DNA from: Candidatus Omnitrophota bacterium
GTDB lineage: Bacteria; Omnitrophota; Gorgyraeia; Zapsychrales; Zapsychraceae
Reading direction: 5' to 3'
DNA length: 64,000 nucleotides
NCBI GenBank assembly: GCA_029261055.1
Contig: JAJDCA010000071.1
Span: 89,778 to 153,777, forward strand
Shown: positions 30,135 through 48,600 of the stretch, one piece after another
How the letters are laid out: the number at the start of each line of letters is the position of its first letter
How positions within the stretch are numbered: the stretch's first letter is position 1
Made by a program: the position numbers and the translations under genes
The notes under the pieces: generated by a model
Told to the model about the DNA's origin: nothing
Databases searched by the model: none
The model's input: the letters and a program-made list of their open reading frames with translations, nothing else

Positions 30135-31325
30135 TCACTGTTTCTTATTAAGAATCATCACCAGCACATCTGGTCGGGATACAATAAGGGTGTTGGGGCA
30201 GGTGTTTTGGACGAGGGTTTTTAGTTCAGGGTCTTCGGTCACGAATACAGCCCAGGTATCTTGAGAGTGAGCCATCGCAGCGGGCACCATCGGGACGTCA
30301 GATTTGGTGTCGCCGCAAATCAAATTTGGGCCTTGGGCCAATTGAAGATGTAAGTCTTTATTAAGAAAATCCACAGCATCGCCTTTGTCAAAATCTTTCA
30401 ACTCGCCGGATTCATCCGCATTTTCGATCGTTAAAATAACTTCAATATCCTTACCGGTATCTTCAATACGGAAATATTTCTTTTGAGGATCAATTTTTTG
30501 AACAATGTTCGTAATAAGGTTAAGAAAGTCTTCAGACTCTTGGGCAGGAATGGTTTTAGAAATATCCTGGCGCGCAATCGTAGTTTGGCCAAATTTAAAT
30601 TGCAGGCCGGAGCCGATTAAGGTGAACATTTCATATTCCGGCTGCTTAACTAAATCGGTCAGTTGTTGATTAAAAATATCCAGTTTGCTTTGTTTGTCCG
30701 GTTCAACCGGGAATTGGTGTCGCTGGCCTTGTTTATCAAAATACTCGCGGCCTTTGGATCCGGCATAAATAAAAATATTGTCTGGTGAAACGCTGATATC
30801 GACCAGTCCGATATTATCCAGTGGGGCAGAAGTCAATATCACGGCATTGTTTACTTTTTGCGCAAAGCGTGTGAGGAATACGGCATTATAAATAGATTGA
30901 ATGGAAGAAGCATAACGACCGCAATAATTATTAACAGTACCGTCACGGTCGGTAATGAAATTTCTAAAAGAGATATCTTTTAGTCTTTCTAACCCTGCAT
31001 TAACTTCAGCAGAAAAGTCTGGATGAAGACTTTCAAGGTAAGCATAAAATTCTTCGGGTGAATGTGTGAGAAAAAAAATATCTTTTTCCAGTTCATTCAT
31101 TTCATAGCTCAGGTCTAAAGCGATTGTTTTATCTTCGGTGAGTTCGAGGTGATATTGATTATCGCGGGTATTAATATTTTTGAGGGCTGTTAATGCTTTT
31201 TCAAGAGGTTGGATATCCTCAGGGGCGATATGTTCCTTATTAAAGTGCATGTTAGTGAGCTGCTGTCGATCATTTCTTGACTGGCGCATTAGTGTGTAAA
31301 ATTCAGCAAGTGTTTGGATTTTCAT
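30135..31325 (-). CDS. HAD-superfamily hydrolase (IIB/trehalose-phosphatase-like) with an N-terminal extension
   Basis: Motif I ITDRDGTVNNY (DxDGT), a late GDTKSDVPM (GDxxxD) motif IV, and a ~130-aa N-terminal region of unknown function. Confidence 0.5.
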   Translation of the reverse strand: MKIQTLAEFYTLMRQSRNDRQQLTNMHFNKEHIAPEDIQPLEKALTALKNINTRDNQYHLELTEDKTIALDLSYEMNELEKDIFFLTHSPEEFYAYLESLHPDFSAEVNAGLERLKDISFRNFITDRDGTVNNYCGRYASSIQSIYNAVFLTRFAQKVNNAVILTSAPLDNIGLVDISVSPDNIFIYAGSKGREYFDKQGQRHQFPVEPDKQSKLDIFNQQLTDLVKQPEYEMFTLIGSGLQFKFGQTTIARQDISKTIPAQESEDFLNLITNIVQKIDPQKKYFRIEDTGKDIEVILTIENADESGELKDFDKGDAVDFLNKDLHLQLAQGPNLICGDTKSDVPMVPAAMAHSQDTWAVFVTEDPELKTLVQNTCPNTLIVSRPDVLVMILNKKQ

Positions 31326-31449
31326 TATAAAATAGTATATATGATTTGCAGGCGTAAATAAAGCCTGCGGTGTATTATTTTTTTAGAGTTGTAATTCATT
31401 TATTTTCAGGTAGTTACAAGCTTGCCGTTCGCTTGCAAATATGTTAACC

Positions 31450-31780
31450 TTTAAGTAAGCCGATAAAGGTAAACCTGGGGAAACCCGGGGGCCCCGTGTA
31501 CCGCGTTGGACGCATGACCTAGAATCTTTCGGGGTTTTAGGCTGCATCACGAAGGGTACGGGCAACCAGAATCCTGAGAGATTTTGGCCCCAAAGTACCA
31601 CGTAGGGCATGGGCGCGAGTCTAATAGGGCTCGTTGACAAAACCACAGACCTAAAATGTCTAAGACCGGGAAGGCCCGAAGGAATGGGCACTAACAGATC
31701 AGAATGGGTTGAGGGGCAAAATGGTGGCTGGGTTGCCGAAGAGCGGTGGGGAGACATCCCATCTTTATCGGCTTTTTTTC
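31450..31780 (+). ncRNA. Candidate ~330-nt GC-rich structured RNA of unknown class
   Basis: Local GC about 55% against about 38% in flanks. Only proline-rich low-complexity ORFs on both strands. A 10-bp closing helix GCCGATAAAG (31459-31468) / CTTTATCGGC (31763-31772) is followed by TTTTTTT. Many internal G-C-rich complementary segments. Strand assignment is tentative; the U-tract favours +. Confidence 0.5.
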
Positions 31781-31852
31781 CTTTAATTTTGTGAACTTAT
31801 CTTGTATAGTACCAACTTCCCAAATAATAAACACGTTTAAAAATCGATAATT

Positions 31853-32881
31853 ATGAGTTTTTCTTATATTCAAAAAATACCTACAGTCGCCGAACTTATC
31901 GAAGAAATTCCGATGAGTGAGGATCTTAAGAAAGTTAAACAAGAACACGATAAAGCTATTCAGGATATTATCAGTGGGCGAAGCGATAGATTTTTAATTA
32001 TTGTCGGTCCTTGTTCTGCTGATAATGAGGATGCGGTGTGTGAGTATGTGGCCCGATTAGCCAAACTTCAGGATAAGGTCAAAGAGCGTTTGGTGCTTGT
32101 GCCACGCGTTTATACCAATAAACCCCGCACAACAGGAGAAGGCTACAAAGGAATGGCACATCAGCCTGACCCCAACGAAGATCCCAACATTGTGGAAGGT
32201 TTAAAGGCCATTCGAAACATGCATGTCCGTATTTTAAAAGATTCGGGCTTGTCTGCGGCGGATGAAATGCTTTATCCCGGCAATTATCCTTTGCTGGCCG
32301 ATGTATTAAGTTATGTCGCTGTTGGGGCGCGTTCTGTTGAAAATCAGCAGCATCGTTTGACCGTCAGTGGTCTTGATGTACCTGTGGGCTTAAAGAATCC
32401 TACGAGTGGTGATTTGACTGTTTTATTAAATTCTCTTCAAGCGGCCCTGGTCCCGCATGTATTTATCTACAACGGCTGGGAAGTTAAGACATCGGGAAAT
32501 CCATTGGCCCATTTGATTTTACGCGGCGCCACTGATCATTTTGGAAAAAATATTCCTAATTATCATTATGAAGATTTGATGCAGCTTTTAGATATGTCCG
32601 CCAAACGAAATTTTGTGGAGCCAGCCATTGTGGTTGATGTAAATCATGCCAATTCTAATAAGACATTCAGCGAGCAGCCCCGGATTGCTTTGGAAGTGAT
32701 GCAGAGTCGACAAAAATCTGATCGATTGAGAAAAAGTGTGCGTGGCCTTATGATCGAAAGTTATTTAGTAGAAGGCGCTCAAAAAGTCGGTGGAACAATA
32801 TGTGGCCAGTCCATCACCGATGGTTGTTTGGGCTGGGAAGACTCCGAAAAATTACTCCTCGAATTAGCGGATCAAGCCTAA
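31853..32881 (+). CDS. aroG: 3-deoxy-7-phosphoheptulonate (DAHP) synthase, class I
   Basis: IVGPCSADNED, RVYTNKPRTTGEGYKG, and an overall AroF/G/H-like alignment. Confidence 0.9.
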   Translation: MSFSYIQKIPTVAELIEEIPMSEDLKKVKQEHDKAIQDIISGRSDRFLIIVGPCSADNEDAVCEYVARLAKLQDKVKERLVLVPRVYTNKPRTTGEGYKGMAHQPDPNEDPNIVEGLKAIRNMHVRILKDSGLSAADEMLYPGNYPLLADVLSYVAVGARSVENQQHRLTVSGLDVPVGLKNPTSGDLTVLLNSLQAALVPHVFIYNGWEVKTSGNPLAHLILRGATDHFGKNIPNYHYEDLMQLLDMSAKRNFVEPAIVVDVNHANSNKTFSEQPRIALEVMQSRQKSDRLRKSVRGLMIESYLVEGAQKVGGTICGQSITDGCLGWEDSEKLLLELADQA

Positions 32882-32897
32882 TCGTCAATTCACAAAA

Positions 32898-33203
32898 ATG
32901 TCCTTCGATGAACAACGATATCAATCCTTACAAGAGAAGAAATTAAGAGAGTGGGAAGCCTTGTGCGGACGCTGCGGAGCCTGCTGCGGTAGTGTTGAAG
33001 GCGATCCTTGCGAACATCTTATTGCCTTAGGGCAAGGCCAGTATGCCTGTGCCATTTATAAAAATCGCTTCGGCCTGCACAAAACCCTGAGCGGAAAACT
33101 TTTCAACTGTGTCCCCATCCGCAACATCCTTTTCAAATCCTGGCCCGGCGACGACTGCTGCGGGTATAAACAGCCTTCTAGTTATACTAAATCCATTAAA
33201 TAA
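32898..33203 (+). CDS. YkgJ/UPF0153-like cysteine-cluster protein
   Basis: CGRCGACCGS plus additional Cys (CEH...C..C), the pattern of the CxxCxxCC putative Fe-S/Zn-binding family. Confidence 0.45.
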   Translation: MSFDEQRYQSLQEKKLREWEALCGRCGACCGSVEGDPCEHLIALGQGQYACAIYKNRFGLHKTLSGKLFNCVPIRNILFKSWPGDDCCGYKQPSSYTKSIK

Positions 33204-44957: not shown

Positions 44958-46157
44958 ATGATTAGTTATATTTACCAATTAAAAGACAATTTAGGGCGTA
45001 ATATATACGGCCTGACGGAAGCTAATGATAAAAAAGAAGTTAAGGTGAAGCTTCGGGAATCGGGTTTTTATTTTGTTTCCGCCAAACCTTACAATAAGAA
45101 AAAATTAGACAATATTAGATTTAAACCCAAAGAGTTAATTTTGTTTACGCAGAGGCTGTCTTCTCTAATAGCGGCCGGAATTCCTATGTTATCCGTGATG
45201 ACCATTCTTTGGCGGCAATCGGAAGATAAAAATATACAGTTAGTTATTAGTTGTATTAAAAATAAGTTAGCGGAAGGGAATAAAATATCGGACAGTATTA
45301 AGCTTTTTCCAAAGATTTTTCCACCTATTTATCATTCCCTTATTAGTGTAGGGGAGACAAGCGGGACGCTTGTGCTCGTTTTGGACAAATTGTTAAGCTA
45401 TTTGGAGTTTAAATTTAATCTTAAAACAAAGATAAAAAAAGCCACGCTTTACCCCTTGGCGGTTATTGTTTTTTCTTTTGTTGTTCTTTATGCTATGTAT
45501 GCTTATGTTGTTCCAACATTTCAAAGAGTGCTATTTAAAATGAAGGTAGAGTTACCTATGTTGACACGGATTATTTTAAAAATGTCAGAATTTGCACGTT
45601 CGCCGGTGTTCGTTTTGATTAGTTTGGTTACTCTAATAAGTATGGTTTTTATTTTTCGATATTTACGGAAAAATAAAAATACGGCATATTATCTCGATGC
45701 TTTTATTATTAAATTACCTGCTGTCGGGCCTCTTTTTATGGCCTTTTCGTTGAGTCAATTTATTCGTTCTTTAAGTATTTTGTTGGGAACTGGAGTTGGC
45801 GCCTTATTAAGTTTAGATAAGGCCAATTCAACGATTAACAATCATAAGCTTAGAAAAGAAATAGGCGCCATTAAAAAAGATGTTGAAGTAGGCGTCCCGA
45901 TGTACGAAGCCTTTAAAAAAGTGCGAGAATTTCCGGTTATGCTGGTTGAAATGATCGGTGTCGGTGAATCTTCCGGGACAATGGTGGCTCTTTTGGAAAA
46001 GACAGCGGATACCTTCGATAATGAAATAGATTATCAGCTTAACAAAATTTTGACCTTACTAGAACCTGCCCTGATCATTTTTGTAGGATTTGTGGTATTT
46101 ATTACGCTTTTGGCGATATATTTACCGATGATTTCTCTCTGGCAAAATATTAGATAA
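44958..46157 (+). CDS. Type II secretion / type IV pilus platform protein (GspF/PilC family)
   Basis: Two repeated T2SSF domains and three TM segments; about 400 aa; immediately downstream of the ATPase. Confidence 0.85.
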   Translation: MISYIYQLKDNLGRNIYGLTEANDKKEVKVKLRESGFYFVSAKPYNKKKLDNIRFKPKELILFTQRLSSLIAAGIPMLSVMTILWRQSEDKNIQLVISCIKNKLAEGNKISDSIKLFPKIFPPIYHSLISVGETSGTLVLVLDKLLSYLEFKFNLKTKIKKATLYPLAVIVFSFVVLYAMYAYVVPTFQRVLFKMKVELPMLTRIILKMSEFARSPVFVLISLVTLISMVFIFRYLRKNKNTAYYLDAFIIKLPAVGPLFMAFSLSQFIRSLSILLGTGVGALLSLDKANSTINNHKLRKEIGAIKKDVEVGVPMYEAFKKVREFPVMLVEMIGVGESSGTMVALLEKTADTFDNEIDYQLNKILTLLEPALIIFVGFVVFITLLAIYLPMISLWQNIR

Positions 46158-46324
46158 CCTCTTAGCAATACGGTAAAATTGTATAATGAAGGTCAAAAAT
46201 GGTTTTTTTAATTTTTTTTAAATTTATTTTTTTGCTTAATTATTCATAACTATTTGAAACTAATATAGTTGAAACAAATTTAAAAGTCTAAAAGAATGCG
46301 TTTTCTTGGATAGTTCTCAGGCAC

Positions 46325-46352
46325 TTGACAATGGAAACTTAAATGTTATACT
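46325..46352 (+). promoter_or_regulatory. Sigma70 promoter with extended -10 driving the riboswitch-pilin transcript
   Basis: TTGACA (46325-46330), 16-nt spacer, TG-n-TATACT (46344-46352). Confidence 0.6.
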
Positions 46353-46371
46353 TCAATCGACTGATAAAGAA

Positions 46372-46456
46372 ATTTGATAAAGGTAAACCATTTGAGAGAA
46401 TGGGACACAAAGCCAAGGACCCTGAGCGCTAGATTCAGGGCAGCCGGTTGCCAAAG
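46372..46456 (+). ncRNA. c-di-GMP-I (GEMM) riboswitch aptamer
   Basis: GGTAAACCATTTGAGAGAATGGGACACAAAGCC... aligns almost base-for-base with the Vc2 GEMM core GGCAAACCATTCGAAAGAGTGGGACGCAAAGCC. P2 hairpin CCATT-GAGA-AATGG has a GNRA loop. P3 hairpin is CCCTGA...TCAGGG. Confidence 0.75.
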
Positions 46457-46466
46457 TTTTTAAAAA

Positions 46467-46505
46467 GGCCTATTCTCAAAAATGGAGAATAGGTCTTTTT
46501 TTTGT
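46467..46505 (+). terminator. Intrinsic terminator / riboswitch expression platform
   Basis: GGCCTATTCTC / GAGAATAGGTC hairpin followed by nine T. The 5' arm can alternatively pair with aptamer segment TTGAGAGAATGG. Confidence 0.7.
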
Positions 46506-46547
46506 GGGTAAATTATTTTTAACCAACCAATAATAAGGGGAGATAAA

Positions 46548-46967
46548 ATGAACACACAACACAAAAAACGTAAATTCGTTACAAAAATGCAACAAGGGTT
46601 CAGTTTGATAGAACTTTTGGTCGTTTTGGTCATTATTGGGGCTATTTTGGCTTTAATTTTACCGAATACCTTTAGAGCTATCCGAGAAGCAAATGAAAAA
46701 ACATGTCAATCGCATCATCGTTCAGTAATATCGGCCGTAGCGTTGTGTTATTCAGATACGAGGGATTATGGAGAGTGTAGTACCGTGGCAGCTCTTTTGA
46801 CCGGAAACTATTTAGATGCTGATCCCATATGCCCGATTGTTGATAGCCAAATAACTGGTGTTAACAGTAGTGATGCAGGGATTTCACCAACTGTCTCTAC
46901 TGATCATTGGCCTAATTGGCCAGTATTAGCAAATGACGATCACATTGATGGTGGTGGCGATGAGTAA
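46548..46967 (+). CDS. Type IV pilin/pseudopilin with prepilin-type N-terminal methylation domain
   Basis: Leader ...KMQQG|FSLIELLVVLVIIGAILALI (class III signal peptide, G/F cleavage site, Glu+5). Cys-rich C-terminal domain. Confidence 0.8.
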   Translation: MNTQHKKRKFVTKMQQGFSLIELLVVLVIIGAILALILPNTFRAIREANEKTCQSHHRSVISAVALCYSDTRDYGECSTVAALLTGNYLDADPICPIVDSQITGVNSSDAGISPTVSTDHWPNWPVLANDDHIDGGGDE

Positions 46968-47073
46968 TTGATTTAATAATTTGAAGTTTGGCTGACCGTT
47001 CTTTCCTTATAGTAGATATACAACCGGAAAGAACGGTCAGAGTAAACAAATTTATATTAAGCATGTACAGCCT

Positions 47074-48600
47074 TTGGGCTGGATAAGGCAAAAGAAAATG
47101 AATAAAGGATACTTAACAATCGGATTAACATCAACCCAAATACGCTATGCTTATGTGGCAAAGGAAAAGGGAAAGCATCAGCTTCAGAAGGCAGGCAGCG
47201 TTGATTTTAAGCTGGATGTGCTGGCTGAAGGGGCTTTGAGTCAGGCTATATTAGAGGTAATCGCCAATGAAGGGATTCATCCACAGAAGCTTTTCTTTAC
47301 GATTGCGCACAAAGATACCCTAATCCGGGAGGCTATTTTACCGGAAGTCAAAAATAAGGAATTAAATGAAATTATTCCTTCAGAAATAGAAAAAAACCCT
47401 CACTTTGCCAATCAGGATTTTGAGTTCATTTTTCATAAATATAAAAGTCAGAAAGACAAACAACGTATTATTTTTGCGGCTCTTGCTGAAAGAATTTTAC
47501 AGTACCTTATAAAAGAAATTGAAAATATTAAAATAGATTGCCAGCATTTAGAAATTGCGCCTTTAAATTTAAAAGATTTGATTTCAACCAAGGATTCTGA
47601 AAATGAAACACAAATTTTGCTTGTCATTCATGATCAGGTAAGTCACGTCATCATTTTTCATCAGGAGCAGTATAGGTTATATTATCAAATGGTGACGGGC
47701 ATAAAAAATCTTTTCCCTCAAGAGAAACAAGGTTTAAATGAACAGGCTTTACTTGGGTTATCAGGGGAATTGCGCCGTGTGATTAAATCGTATCTTGCAG
47801 AATATAAGGAAGAGAGTATTTCTCGTGTTTGGCTGGTTTGGGATAATGCACAAGGCCAGGGATTGCAGCAAGGGCTTCAGGAAAAATTAGAATTAGATGT
47901 GAAAAATTTATCCGTAGATCAATTGGATGGCCAGCCCATTCAATATGACGAACAGGATTTGGAAATGGATAATTCTATTTTTACATTGCAATTAACGCCG
48001 TTAGTTTATCATCTTAAAAAACAATGCGAACAATTCTCGTTTATCCATTTCTTGTCCAAAACATTTAGCAGGAAGCATTGCAAAGAAGTGGTGGCTATGT
48101 CTGCGGTATGTTTAATTATTATATCTTCCGTTTTCATTTTATTGGGAGCCAAGTTTCATCAGGTAAAAACCCGTGTGCTTGCGCAAACGACTGAGGTTTT
48201 AAGTGAAATTCAACGTGTCGAGGGTGAGTCCCAACAATTATTTGATCAAAGGCAATCTTATGTGCGGTCACGTAACCGTTTGTTAAAACAGGCGGCTTAT
48301 GTCAAAGAAATTAATAGTGTCAGTTGGTCTGAGGTGTTGGCCGTGGTTGCCCAGGAAATTCCGGATAACCTAGCCTTAACATCATTTGACCTGAATCAGT
48401 CCGGGAGCACAAAATTTAAAGGAGAAGCCCTCGCCATAGAGTCGGTTTCGGAAATGATCCGTCAGGTCGATGATTCGGCCATACTCCATAATGGGCAATT
48501 TGATTTTCTTAGGGAAGATCAGATAAAGGGTAATAAAATATTTCAATTTGGTATTTCTGCGAACCTATCCAAGCAGGAAGGAGCAACAGATGACAAATAA
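47074..48600 (+). CDS. PilM-like actin-fold ATPase fused to a PilN-like TM/coiled-coil region
   Basis: N-terminal ~330 aa with the PilM-like pattern (IGLTSTQIRYAYV...). A TM helix VVAMSAVCLIIISSVFILLGA, then a coiled-coil periplasmic part. TTG start; an ATG alternative at 47098. Confidence 0.55.
   Translation: MGWIRQKKMNKGYLTIGLTSTQIRYAYVAKEKGKHQLQKAGSVDFKLDVLAEGALSQAILEVIANEGIHPQKLFFTIAHKDTLIREAILPEVKNKELNEIIPSEIEKNPHFANQDFEFIFHKYKSQKDKQRIIFAALAERILQYLIKEIENIKIDCQHLEIAPLNLKDLISTKDSENETQILLVIHDQVSHVIIFHQEQYRLYYQMVTGIKNLFPQEKQGLNEQALLGLSGELRRVIKSYLAEYKEESISRVWLVWDNAQGQGLQQGLQEKLELDVKNLSVDQLDGQPIQYDEQDLEMDNSIFTLQLTPLVYHLKKQCEQFSFIHFLSKTFSRKHCKEVVAMSAVCLIIISSVFILLGAKFHQVKTRVLAQTTEVLSEIQRVEGESQQLFDQRQSYVRSRNRLLKQAAYVKEINSVSWSEVLAVVAQEIPDNLALTSFDLNQSGSTKFKGEALAIESVSEMIRQVDDSAILHNGQFDFLREDQIKGNKIFQFGISANLSKQEGATDDK

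Follow-up and report, generated by a model that had tools for sequence, protein, structure and literature searches.

A putative c-di-GMP-I riboswitch with a 144-nt two-hairpin insertion upstream of a DAHP synthase gene in an Omnitrophota bacterium

A structured block of ~320 nt upstream of a DAHP synthase gene is, judged by its sequence, a c-di-GMP-I riboswitch (GEMM-I, RF01051 clan), a known class represented here by a new structural variant. The block occupies 31457-31779 on the + strand of the window, by which we mean the whole 64,000-nt stretch of DNA analyzed. The best explanation overall, which we consider quite probable, is a long-P3 c-di-GMP-I riboswitch with its own promoter, a 144-nt insertion, and a predicted ON output. 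An earlier note on this DNA had suggested a riboswitch-type leader of unrecognized class. The leader holds up, with its own promoter and terminator and a position 72 nt before the DAHP synthase gene; the unrecognized class does not.

The block differs from its surroundings in composition, with 54% GC compared with 24-30% in the flanks. GC content was 52.9% over 31450-31780 and 54.2% over 31459-31781, compared with 38.9% for the whole 64-kb window, 30.1% for 31326-31458, and 23.9% for 31782-31852. The previously described GC jump is therefore real, with its figure of “about 55%” slightly overstated. The + strand fold had a predicted energy of -130.5 kcal/mol (z = -3.66), equaled by none of 100 shuffles, and the - strand had z = -1.59. 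Only the + strand thus folds better than shuffles. Two ORFs cross the block but are unlikely to be coding, because homologs differ by one-base indels. The likely regulated genes are those for DAHP synthase and a small Cys-rich protein.

31383-31757, - strand: ORF over the block, 124 aa, Pro/Ser-rich
31609-31794, + strand: ORF over the block, 61 aa
31853-32881, + strand: class I DAHP synthase (PF00793; TIGR00034 (aroFGH, 270 bits); NF009395)
32898-33203, + strand: Cys-rich protein, about 100 aa (weak YcgN-like match)

Homologs of the Cys-rich protein lie right after the riboswitch in four loci of relatives (L002, L005, L090, and L129). A scan of the 72-nt spacer before DAHP synthase found no promoter-like site. 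Six further DAHP-synthase loci (L088, L089, L211-L214) contained no homolog of the element. Locus L083 has an RNase P-like RNA upstream of DAHP synthase. Three proteins considered as close relatives with 5'-extended gene calls (P0002, P0003, and P0005) turned out to be longer, unrelated enzymes of this kind, and no riboswitch precedes their genes.

At gathering thresholds, a search of the whole window with Rfam gave no match at this locus, in agreement with the earlier by-eye finding that none of the classes compared fitted. The classes compared by eye did not include c-di-GMP. In E-value mode on a 600-nt region, and only in that mode, cmscan returned two collinear half-matches to the c-di-GMP-I clan (CL00126) at the two ends of the block, one to P1/P2 (31459-31506, 24.5 bits, gathering score [GA] 59) and one to P3 and the 3' strand of P1 (31617-31740, 27.2 bits, GA 35). 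We attribute the split into sub-threshold halves to the 144-nt insertion. The cmscan comparison, which had been proposed as a check, thus went against an unrecognized class. Besides this clan, only about three chance-level Rfam matches appeared in 31300-31900 at E <= 10, and RNase P, tmRNA, SRP, 6S, T-box, cobalamin, glycine, and glmS had no match in that interval at the same threshold.

Family membership was assigned by homology and by removing the insertion in silico, with the window sequence itself scoring below every Rfam gathering score. Fifteen insertion-less homologs pass gathering thresholds, at 65-84 bits with RF01051 (GA 35) or 60-65 bits with RF03167 (GA 59). When the 144 nt (31493-31636) are removed, the remaining 174 nt of the window RNA are 68-80% identical to these 15 homologs, and 40 of 42 consensus pairs form. 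Four relatives reached via their DAHP-synthase loci (L005, L002, L084, and L090) lack exactly the 144 nt. A model built from 14 insertion-less homologs (R1) gives two matches in the window, one of 89 bits (E about 1e-20) and, to the 5' part, one of 28.8 bits; the covariance model cannot bridge the 144 nt. The same model matches L133 end to end (110 bits).

Covariation among homologs, also proposed earlier as a check, supported a conserved structure. In an alignment of 41 sequences (A3), which was fitted to the model and so favors the modeled pairs, 95.6% of cells were paired and 28 of 42 consensus pairs had changed on both sides. None of 500 shuffles was as good, and slid controls were 27%-47% paired. 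MAFFT misaligns the full-length window RNA (A1), and a further alignment (A2) was made without the insert. The reading of the earlier note, a large structured RNA of a new class with no tie to known families, has in its favor the lack of an Rfam match at gathering thresholds. However, the passing homologs, the R1 match, and the identity and pairing found after insert removal refute this reading, and we leave it almost no probability. The family was thus reached indirectly, through sub-threshold clan matches, passing homologs, and a homolog-built model.

The subgroup to which the window RNA belongs comes mostly from uncultured bacteria, and its genome-derived members are from Omnitrophota MAGs. 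Its members have a ~70-nt extension of the P3 arm and begin with GCCGAUAAAGG, which is strictly conserved and complementary to the terminator 3' strand. We note that the metagenome scan required U at position 22; its counts are to be read as “at least,” and its frequencies come from a biased sample. A canonical c-di-GMP-I riboswitch was found by Rfam elsewhere in the window (46372-46455), indicating that the organism uses the c-di-GMP signal. The features of the RNA are as follows.

31422-31450, + strand: putative promoter, -35 TTGCCG (31422-31427), 17-nt spacer, extended -10 TGtTAACCT (31442-31450), placed by alignment
31457-31470, + strand: P0 5' strand AAGCCGAUAAAGGU, including P1 5' strand CG (31461-31462) and J1/2 AUAAAG (RF03167 positions 1-12)
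31468, + strand: G20 equivalent (Rfam consensus alignment)
31469-31492, + strand: P2 hairpin, GU, AAA, CCUGGG, GAAA tetraloop, CCCGGG, GGC (cmscan alignment)
31492, + strand: C44 equivalent (Rfam consensus alignment)
31493-31613, + strand: insertion hairpin A, 121 nt, long irregular stem (20-bp helix, 7x7 internal loop, branched tip)
31615-31634, + strand: insertion hairpin B, GCGAGUCU-AAUA-GGGCUCGU, then UG at 31635-31636 (from folds)
31639-31641, + strand: AAA between P2 and P3, invariant in alignments; A47 equivalent at 31639
31641-31734, + strand: P3 arm, basal stems AACC/GGUU, CAG/CUG, ACC/GGU (cmscan and R1 alignments)
31652-31722, + strand: P3 extension, 71 nt, with P3b (31657-31660/31715-31718), P3c (31665-31667/31707-31709), and hairpin P3d (31674-31678/31685-31689)
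31735-31741, + strand: GCCGAAG, J3/1 and P1 3' strand CG (31737-31738); C92 equivalent at 31736 (cmscan alignments)
31735-31772, + strand: local intrinsic terminator hairpin (fold -18.2 to -18.8 kcal/mol)
31761-31774, + strand: P0 3' strand AUCUUUAUCGGCUU, common to P0 and the terminator stem
31773-31779, + strand: U7 tract of the terminator (sequence)

The predicted aptamer has the architecture published for GEMM (PMC1950547), with our P2 corresponding to P1 of Weinberg 2007 and to P1b of the Vc2 papers. In the published description, the first GEMM hairpin starts with 2 bp, continues through a 3-nt internal loop (AAA/GAC) and 6 bp, and ends in a GNRA tetraloop, and the linker is “virtually always AAA” (PMC1950547). 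The window reads GU-AAA-CCUGGG-GAAA-CCCGGG-GGC-(insert)-AC, in which the 3' side of the loop has GGC in place of GAC and is split by the insert, so that the basal pairs of P2 are closed by A31637 and C31638 beyond it. Four of the six distal P2 pairs covary in A3. The Rfam structure line shows 31639-31640 as unpaired linker and A31641 as the opening of P3, which has bulges at A31645 and GG 31726-31727, the latter containing the G83 equivalent (31727). Within P3, CCUAAA (31650-31655) and AAUGG (31720-31724) show one change from the 11-nt receptor CCUAAG/UAUGG. The AAA linker is thus accompanied by a second hairpin with a tetraloop receptor, the combination expected when the P2 loop is GAAA. Four helices of the P3 arm (A3 helices 4-6 and 8) covary; RNAalifold was run on the P3 segments of 16 sequences, and P3c is invariant and therefore only predicted.

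Vc2 (the Vibrio cholerae GEMM-I, RF01051; 3IRW, 3MXH) shares much of this anatomy with the window RNA. Both have a three-helix junction with an AAA linker, a P2 in which a 3-nt loop separates 2 bp from 6 bp capped by a GAAA tetraloop, a P3 with receptor-like CCUAA/AUGG and a bulged G, and a short P1 with a CG/CG core. The window RNA differs in its length (about 320 nt versus about 90 nt), its 144-nt two-hairpin insert after C44, its 71-nt branched P3 extension, its GGC rather than GAC loop in P2, a U-A pair in place of the C-G basal pair, and a helix of 12-14 bp that joins its very 5' end to the 3' strand of the terminator. The Vc2 positions G20, A47, C92, C44, and G83 correspond to G31468, A31639, C31736, C31492, and G31727; A47, C92, C44, and G83 are invariant in the 14-sequence alignment. 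We take G20 and A47 to be ligand-contacting positions of the c-di-GMP-I aptamer. Roles of C92 and of the C44-G83 pair in Vc2 have been described (PMC11705072).

The same fold might bind a different ligand, making the RNA a GEMM-I variant for another dinucleotide or an aromatic amino-acid-related metabolite, and we consider this highly improbable. Such a ligand would fit the associated genes, which are atypical for c-di-GMP (DAHP synthase, small Cys-rich/Zn-ribbon proteins, RsmE, and a GH1 glucosidase in relatives). It would also fit the GGC internal loop of P2 found in the window, L002, L005, L084, L090, and L112, and the best scores of several homologs against the RF03167 “GGC” variant model. 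However, that model includes P1 and tolerates a long P3 loop, which explains its better scores, and close relatives with GAC (L148, L117, and L193) are alike in the remaining sequence. The ligand-contacting positions also argue against a change of ligand, with G at position 20, A at position 47, and C92 present. The c-di-GMP-I-GGC variant (RF03167) is presumably marked by G at position 47, within a G20-G47-C92 triad; this variant was rejected, as the window and each of the 16 long-P3 sequences have A at that position. The c-GAMP riboswitch (GEMM-Ib) is defined by A at position 20 and was likewise rejected, as the window has G31468, a G shared by about 40 of the 41 sequences of A3.

The insertion that distinguishes the window RNA consists of two hairpins placed immediately 3' of the C44 equivalent of P2, and folded alone it has a predicted energy of -61.6 kcal/mol. 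Two-hairpin inserts occur at the identical site in L125 (36 nt), L171 (47 nt), L133 (62 nt), and L091 (80 nt). Rfam misses four out of these five insertion-bearing GEMM-I RNAs, with only L171 passing (43 bits). Hairpin A is absent from 14 aligned long-P3 homologs free of insertions and had no Rfam match at E <= 10. BLAST and nhmmer searches of the 64-kb window and about 2 Mb of fetched loci gave no second copy of the insert, and no terminal inverted repeats or target-site duplication were seen at 31493/31636. These results led us to reject a miniature mobile element or IS fragment, with the search for copies covering 64 kb of the host. A scan of viral contigs for the insertion-type signature gave 0 matches. 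Comparison of the insert with the riboswitch as a possible duplicate showed weak similarity (GAGUCUAAUAGGG and AAGCCGAUAAAGG match at 7 of 13 positions). Our literature search found no described insertions in GEMM-I, which is weak evidence given that many riboswitch papers lie outside its coverage.

Most likely, the two inserted hairpins form a peripheral domain, tolerated or stabilizing, that projects from where C44 flips out of P2. The insertion adjoins the binding core and could impair binding. A rival reading is a decaying riboswitch, in which a foreign or slipped 144-nt insertion would have inactivated the aptamer so that nothing is sensed any more. The insert does separate C44 from the two basal P2 pairs beside the binding pocket, is far longer than the other four, and has no sequence homolog in any search. 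However, decay appears very unlikely, as all conserved core positions and consensus helices are intact in the window (40/42 pairs), and promoter, terminator, and P0 are all kept. Two stable hairpins take up the whole insert. The same layout is found in inserts at this phosphodiester bond in four independent relatives, one of which (L091) precedes a prepilin-like gene. The window insert lacks the repeats, target duplication, and second copy of a mobile element. Beyond a tolerated peripheral domain, the two-hairpin module may be a functional accessory domain that tunes c-di-GMP affinity or kinetics or binds a second factor, gating shikimate entry together with c-di-GMP, but we regard this as quite unlikely.

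Conserved sequence around the aptamer is consistent with an RNA that has its own promoter. A motif of the form cTTGaaa/cTTGcc - 17 nt - TGnTATAnT lies at a fixed position upstream of 34 homologous riboswitches. A promoter scan calls the same promoter in L005 (TTGAAA-17-TATCCT with TG) and L084 (TTGCCG-17-TATATT with TG). The -10 of the window is too weak for the scan, so its promoter was assigned by alignment, and from this we infer a transcription start at about 31456-31458.

The perfect 10-bp “closing helix” described previously does pair, with GCCGATAAAG at 31459-31468 and CTTTATCGGC at 31763-31772, although 31772 is the end of that arm rather than its start. The perfect long-range helix is really 12 bp (31457-31468/31763-31774), or 14 bp with G-U and U-A pairs. 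Among dinucleotide shuffles, a perfect helix of >=12 bp arose in 1 of 300 and one of >=10 bp in 5%, so the helix alone is mildly unusual and its significance comes from conservation in homologs. The 12 P0 pairs are 94% paired across 41 sequences, and six have changed on both sides, with independent examples in L203, L122, L116, and L137. The 3' partner CUUUAUCGGY occurs in 29 of 34 distinct sequences starting GCCGAUAAAGG among the matches listed, and the rest have one-base variants. A plain closing stem of a novel fold was rejected because the 5' arm consists of aptamer P1 and J1/2 nucleotides; the helix is an alternative pairing of the aptamer 5' strand with the terminator 3' strand, not a simple base of the fold.

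Two further observations of the earlier note, the U7 right after the helix and a possible local terminator hairpin, were confirmed, the latter folding locally at about -17 to -19 kcal/mol. The hairpin has a base of GCCGA (31735-31739) and UCGGC (31768-31772), a middle segment GAG/CUU, and a top stem, P4, of GGUGGGG-AGACA-UCCCAUC (31745-31763). Both strands of the P4 stem differ among the window, L005, and L084 (UGGGG/UCCCA, GAGGG/UCCUC, and GUGAGGA/UCCUCAC). GCCGAAG of the aptamer is also the 5' base of this stem, and GCCGA and UCGGC pair locally in the window and about 30 homologs. The local hairpin and a U-tract are predicted for most of 32 folded sequences, and in L005 a terminator scan also calls the equivalent hairpin. 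Nearly all homologs have a U-rich tract after the P0 3' strand.

From this arrangement we infer that the c-di-GMP switch most likely turns expression on. The aptamer would fold first during transcription. With c-di-GMP bound, GCCGAUAAAG on the 5' side and GCCGAAG on the 3' side would be held in P1 and the binding pocket, leaving CUUUAUCGGC without a partner. Only the small P4 hairpin would then form, 6-9 nt short of U7, and RNA polymerase would read into the DAHP synthase and Cys-rich protein genes. Without ligand, CUUUAUCGGC could pair with either GCCGA copy, the 5' copy giving the 12-14 bp P0 and the 3' copy the local hairpin. Each predicted stem abuts U7 and would cause termination, although P0, as a long-range helix around some 300 nt, may do so with low efficiency. 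Folding of the window RNA gave the corresponding states, with the last 9 nt before U7 unpaired when the aptamer strands were blocked and a stem reaching U7 when they were free. The same ON logic has been proposed for GEMM terminators (PMC1950547).

Relatives and known systems leave room for another output, which we consider unlikely. The RNA may be an OFF switch, in which P0 would antiterminate in the ligand-free state and the local hairpin would terminate when ligand is bound. It may instead be a stand-alone transcript, bounded by its terminator, whose stability or trans activity would respond to c-di-GMP. The predicted direction is not uniform across relatives, as an 11-bp local hairpin (CGGUGAGGGAG/CUCCUUUAUCG) in L002 and L005 can reach the adjacent U-rich tract without the help of the aptamer strands. 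For 25 of 34 relatives, predictions for the “ligand-bound” tail still show pairing to within 3 nt of the tract, often via weak pairs. A second strong terminator lies just downstream in L002, L005, L090, and L084. In L084, a convergent gene follows the riboswitch; DAHP synthase is there out of reach of the RNA, which may be a stand-alone transcript. Unlike the window RNA, which is predicted to be ON, Vc2 is reported as an OFF switch, and a preprint reports Vc2 controlling the stability of an upstream sRNA.

Bc1 is a GEMM-I riboswitch of the Bacillus cereus group with a long expression platform and two terminators. As in our ON proposal, its aptamer is followed by a ligand-sensitive first terminator, T1, which is reported to unfold with c-di-GMP (PMC11218506). 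Its dual terminator is reported to mask the c-di-GMP response (PMC11218506); in L002, L005, L090, and L084, too, there is a second terminator, apparently unconditional, a few tens of nucleotides downstream. The window copy has a single terminator, its phylum and regulated genes differ from those of Bc1, and the abstract on Bc1 describes neither an insertion nor a helix between the 5' strand and the terminator 3' strand (PMC11218506). For the window, three observations speak against such a different output. No hairpin reaches U7 when the aptamer strands are blocked, so an OFF switch would have no bound-state terminator. The window has no second terminator, and on the same strand DAHP synthase begins after 72 nt. 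In nearly all members, P0 ends right at the U-tract. The pbuE (ydhL) adenine riboswitch is a textbook transcriptional ON switch with comparable logic, in that the P1 3' strand doubles as the 5' base of the terminator and ligand blocks the terminator. It differs in having an unrelated aptamer fold, a different ligand, and no long-range second partner such as P0.

These findings leave the general view of riboswitch function unchanged. They suggest that a branch as long as 144 nt can be accommodated by the GEMM-I core at the nucleotide forming the C44-G83 inter-helix pair, and that one GEMM-I subgroup uses a conserved, covarying helix between the 5' end of the transcript and the 3' strand of its terminator. 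Because GEMM-I RNAs with a post-C44 insert are mostly missed by the Rfam model, censuses of uncultured phyla would under-count them, and an Rfam-type model allowing an insert after C44 would recover more. DAHP synthase is the first gene of aromatic amino-acid synthesis. Our literature search found no paper naming a c-di-GMP riboswitch together with DAHP synthase. If the inserted hairpins were an accessory domain, c-di-GMP and a second input would gate the shikimate pathway via DAHP synthase in an Omnitrophota-like lineage. More generally, with a c-di-GMP riboswitch before DAHP synthase, the making of aromatic amino acids would be tied to a second messenger of lifestyle.

The GC-rich block upstream of the DAHP synthase gene, described in an earlier note as closed by a perfect 10-bp long-range helix and followed by U7, was confirmed in the sequence. 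GC content is 52.9% at 31450-31780 and 54.2% at 31459-31781, with 30.1% and 23.9% in the flanking spacers and 38.9% across the whole window. GCCGATAAAG (31459-31468) is perfectly complementary to CTTTATCGGC (31763-31772), and counting further perfect pairs brings the helix to 12 bp (31457-31468 with 31763-31774). We note that this helix taken alone is weak evidence, since dinucleotide shuffles also yield perfect helices of at least 12 bp (1 of 300) or at least 10 bp (5%). The folding energy of the block was -130.5 kcal/mol on the + strand (z = -3.66), and the - strand gave z = -1.59.

The Rfam search proposed for this block was negative at gathering thresholds, with no match over 31450-31780 in a search of the whole window, but in a permissive search of 31300-31900 the c-di-GMP-I (GEMM-I) riboswitch clan matched twice, collinearly and below threshold. 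The first (31459-31506, 24.5 bits) corresponds to helix P1, junction J1/2 and a GAAA-capped hairpin, and the second (31617-31740, 27.2 bits) to the AAA linker, receptor-bearing hairpin and 3' junction. Homologs of the element are present in Omnitrophota MAGs, at loci where a relative of the downstream DAHP synthase is encoded, and since the 5' and 3' matches of these homologs abut directly, the window has ~144 extra nt between the two. Two further homologs without the insert lie on contigs encoding the closest DAHP synthases.

A metagenome pattern scan on the conserved P2 core, a biased sample in that U was required at position 22, found at least 120 loci. Among the matches listed, at least 34 distinct sequences have the 5' end GCCGAUAAAGG in common; 3' CUUUAUCGGY followed by a U-rich tract is exact in 29 of these 34, with one-base variants in the rest. 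At least 16 sequences, including the window, share a long P3 arm. Fifteen insertion-less homologs exceed Rfam gathering scores, either for RF01051 (65-84 bits, cutoff 35) or for the c-di-GMP-I-GGC variant model RF03167 (60-65 bits, cutoff 59). Fourteen of them were used to build a covariance model, which matched the window at 31617-31774 (89 bits, E about 1e-20) and 31457-31537 (28.8 bits), and covered the metagenome locus L133 end to end (110 bits). With 31493-31636 removed in silico, the window RNA (174 nt) was 68-80% identical to insertion-less homologs and formed 40 of 42 consensus pairs. In a 41-sequence alignment, 95.6% of cells were paired and 28 of 42 pairs showed changes on both sides, while none of 500 shuffles reached these values and slid controls were 27%-47% paired; this alignment was fitted to the model and hence leans its way, although the margin over controls is large.

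We take G20 and A47 of the Vibrio cholerae riboswitch Vc2 to be ligand-site positions, with position 47 marking the 'GGC' variant and position 20 the c-GAMP type. The window has G31468 (G20) and A31639 (A47), so both alternatives were rejected. Also present are C31736 (C92), C31492 (C44), G31727 (G83), and a GAAA loop with its CCUAAA/AAUGG receptor; in Vc2 the equivalent nucleotides touch the ligand or keep the fold together (PMC11705072), and the GEMM motifs have been described (PMC1950547). Homologs, model and covariation point to a known fold rather than the unrecognised RNA class suggested earlier, and by sequence comparison the element very probably belongs to the c-di-GMP-I family. Its architecture is unusual in that two hairpins are inserted after C44, P3 is branched, and the 5' end forms a helix with the terminator.

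Features of the element
31422-31427, + strand: -35 TTGCCG, from alignment to homologs
31442-31450, + strand: extended -10 TGtTAACCT, from alignment to homologs
31493-31613, + strand: hairpin A, predicted fold of the insert
31615-31634, + strand: hairpin B, predicted fold of the insert
31735-31739, + strand: GCCGA (J3/1 and P1 3' strand), partner of UCGGC at 31768-31772 in the predicted fold
31735-31772, + strand: local hairpin topped by P4 (31745-31763), abutting U7, predicted fold
31773-31779, + strand: U7 tract, directly 3' of the long-range helix, seen in the sequence

The position of the upstream -35/extended -10 promoter is conserved across at least 34 homologs, and a promoter scan calls it in L005 and L084, two loci found via DAHP synthase relatives. 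Transcription would start at ~31457, exactly where the long-range helix begins.

The local hairpin layout is predicted in ~30 relatives, and the P4 stem shows both-side changes between lineages. The terminator's 3' strand is also perfectly complementary to the aptamer 5' strand, giving helix P0, which is 94% paired in the 41 sequences and covaries at 6 of 12 pairs (model-fitted alignment). Independent compensatory versions of P0 occur outside the GCCGAU class (among them GACCGAU/AUCGGUC, UCCGAU/AUCGGA and CGAGAAAGG/CCUUUCUCG). A different use of 5'-strand pairing is seen in the GEMM-I RNA of L097 (oriented 905-1110), where UUGUUUCCGAAAAGG, the aptamer 5' strand, can pair with the U-tract of a canonical terminator together with the GGAAACGG that comes next, just before a GGAGG.

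In fold predictions, blocking P1 and junction nucleotides left the window's CUUUAUCGGC unpaired and the last pair 9 nt short of U7; with these nucleotides free, the terminator stem reached U7. The simplest reading of this platform, toward which we lean slightly, would be a transcriptional ON switch, a logic first suggested for GEMM terminators in PMC1950547. Some relatives may behave otherwise: L002 and L005 each have an 11-bp local hairpin that can extend to the U-rich tract with no aptamer nucleotides involved, the predicted direction is ambiguous in many relatives, and several have a second terminator or convergent gene downstream. Such second terminators recall the dual terminator of Bc1 (Bacillus cereus group), as described in PMC11218506.

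The best relatives of the window's DAHP synthase are 70%-72% identical, mostly from Omnitrophota MAGs. Five lineages have this riboswitch upstream of DAHP synthase (the window, L002, L005, L084 and L090), with the two directly adjacent in the window only; the other relatives inspected lack it there. The earlier proposal of a leader riboswitch for this gene is supported. The most constant companions of the riboswitch are two small proteins of ~100 aa. One, Cys-rich (CG.CG.CCG...DPCEHL...C.IY..RFG), had no Pfam match and weak, sub-threshold YcgN-family similarity; its gene lies directly after a member of this riboswitch subgroup, or else after DAHP synthase. The other, Zn-ribbon-like (M..K.IRVY...C..C..IKL..CP.C..FKY), is encoded immediately past the long-P3 riboswitch, as the first gene there, in at least three metagenome contigs and follows DAHP synthase in L084. 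Short GCCGAU-class GEMM-I RNAs with GCCGAUAAAGG...CUUUAUCGGC ends precede GH1-type beta-glucosidase genes (~410 aa), an assignment made by Pfam for L209 and by shared N-terminal sequence for the other eight loci; several have in common a near-identical second terminator, CCCAACA...UGUUGGG-U6. L083 (~1620-1960) carries RNase P RNA hallmarks by eye (GAGGAAAGUCCGGGC ... ACAGAAA); the DAHP synthase downstream of them is longer and unrelated.

Genes associated with GEMM-I RNAs
Window 32898-33203 (+); L002 3604-3924; L090 1891-2190; L129 282-614: Cys-rich protein
L084 4129-4431; L166 77-376; L161 2096-2392; L205 3491-3790: Zn-ribbon-like protein
L209, L100, L114, L155, L158, L107, L138, L095, L189: metagenome loci with short GEMM-I before GH1
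Window 44958-48600: T2SSF/PilC-like, prepilin-like and PilN-domain genes around a second riboswitch

This second, canonical c-di-GMP-I riboswitch (46372-46455, + strand; RF01051, 61 bits) is flanked by the T2SSF/PilC-like gene and the prepilin-like gene (N_methyl motif), followed by the PilN-domain gene. As a GEMM-I of the typical pilus-associated kind, it shows c-di-GMP riboswitches to be in use in this organism. Two copies per contig also occur in L122 (217-323 and 373-524, in tandem) and L164 (25-52 and 1247-1274), which fit the tendency of GEMM-I to occur in tandem (PMC1950547).

The 144-nt insert (31493-31636) separates the C44 equivalent from the two pairs at the base of P2, and hairpins A and B are predicted to take up its full length. 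No Rfam family matched it in the permissive search of 31300-31900. At this very bond, at least four other GEMM-I RNAs are also interrupted (L133, 62 nt; L091, 80 nt; L171, 47 nt; L125, 36 nt), and each of these inserts is predicted to fold into precisely two neighbouring hairpins, whose sequence is unrelated. A sequence search of the 64-kb window and all fetched loci gave no second copy of the window's insert. A prepilin-like gene lies downstream of the insert-bearing riboswitch in L091; prepilin-type genes are classic c-di-GMP targets. In Vc2, C44 quits its helix to pair with G83 (PMC11705072), and a chain exposed there could accommodate a branch. From these results we take the insert to be a peripheral expansion that recurs in GEMM-I RNAs, rather than a mobile element or an inactivating lesion, with low confidence in any specific role. 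Of the five insert-bearing RNAs, four, the window's included, do not reach the Rfam gathering score; the fifth, L171, does so with only 43 bits.

Other insert-bearing GEMM-I RNAs under the gathering score
L091, 10622-10649 region
L125, 1625-1790
L133, 503-752

For GEMM-I RNAs in which C44 is followed by a two-hairpin insert, RF01051 has a systematic blind spot.
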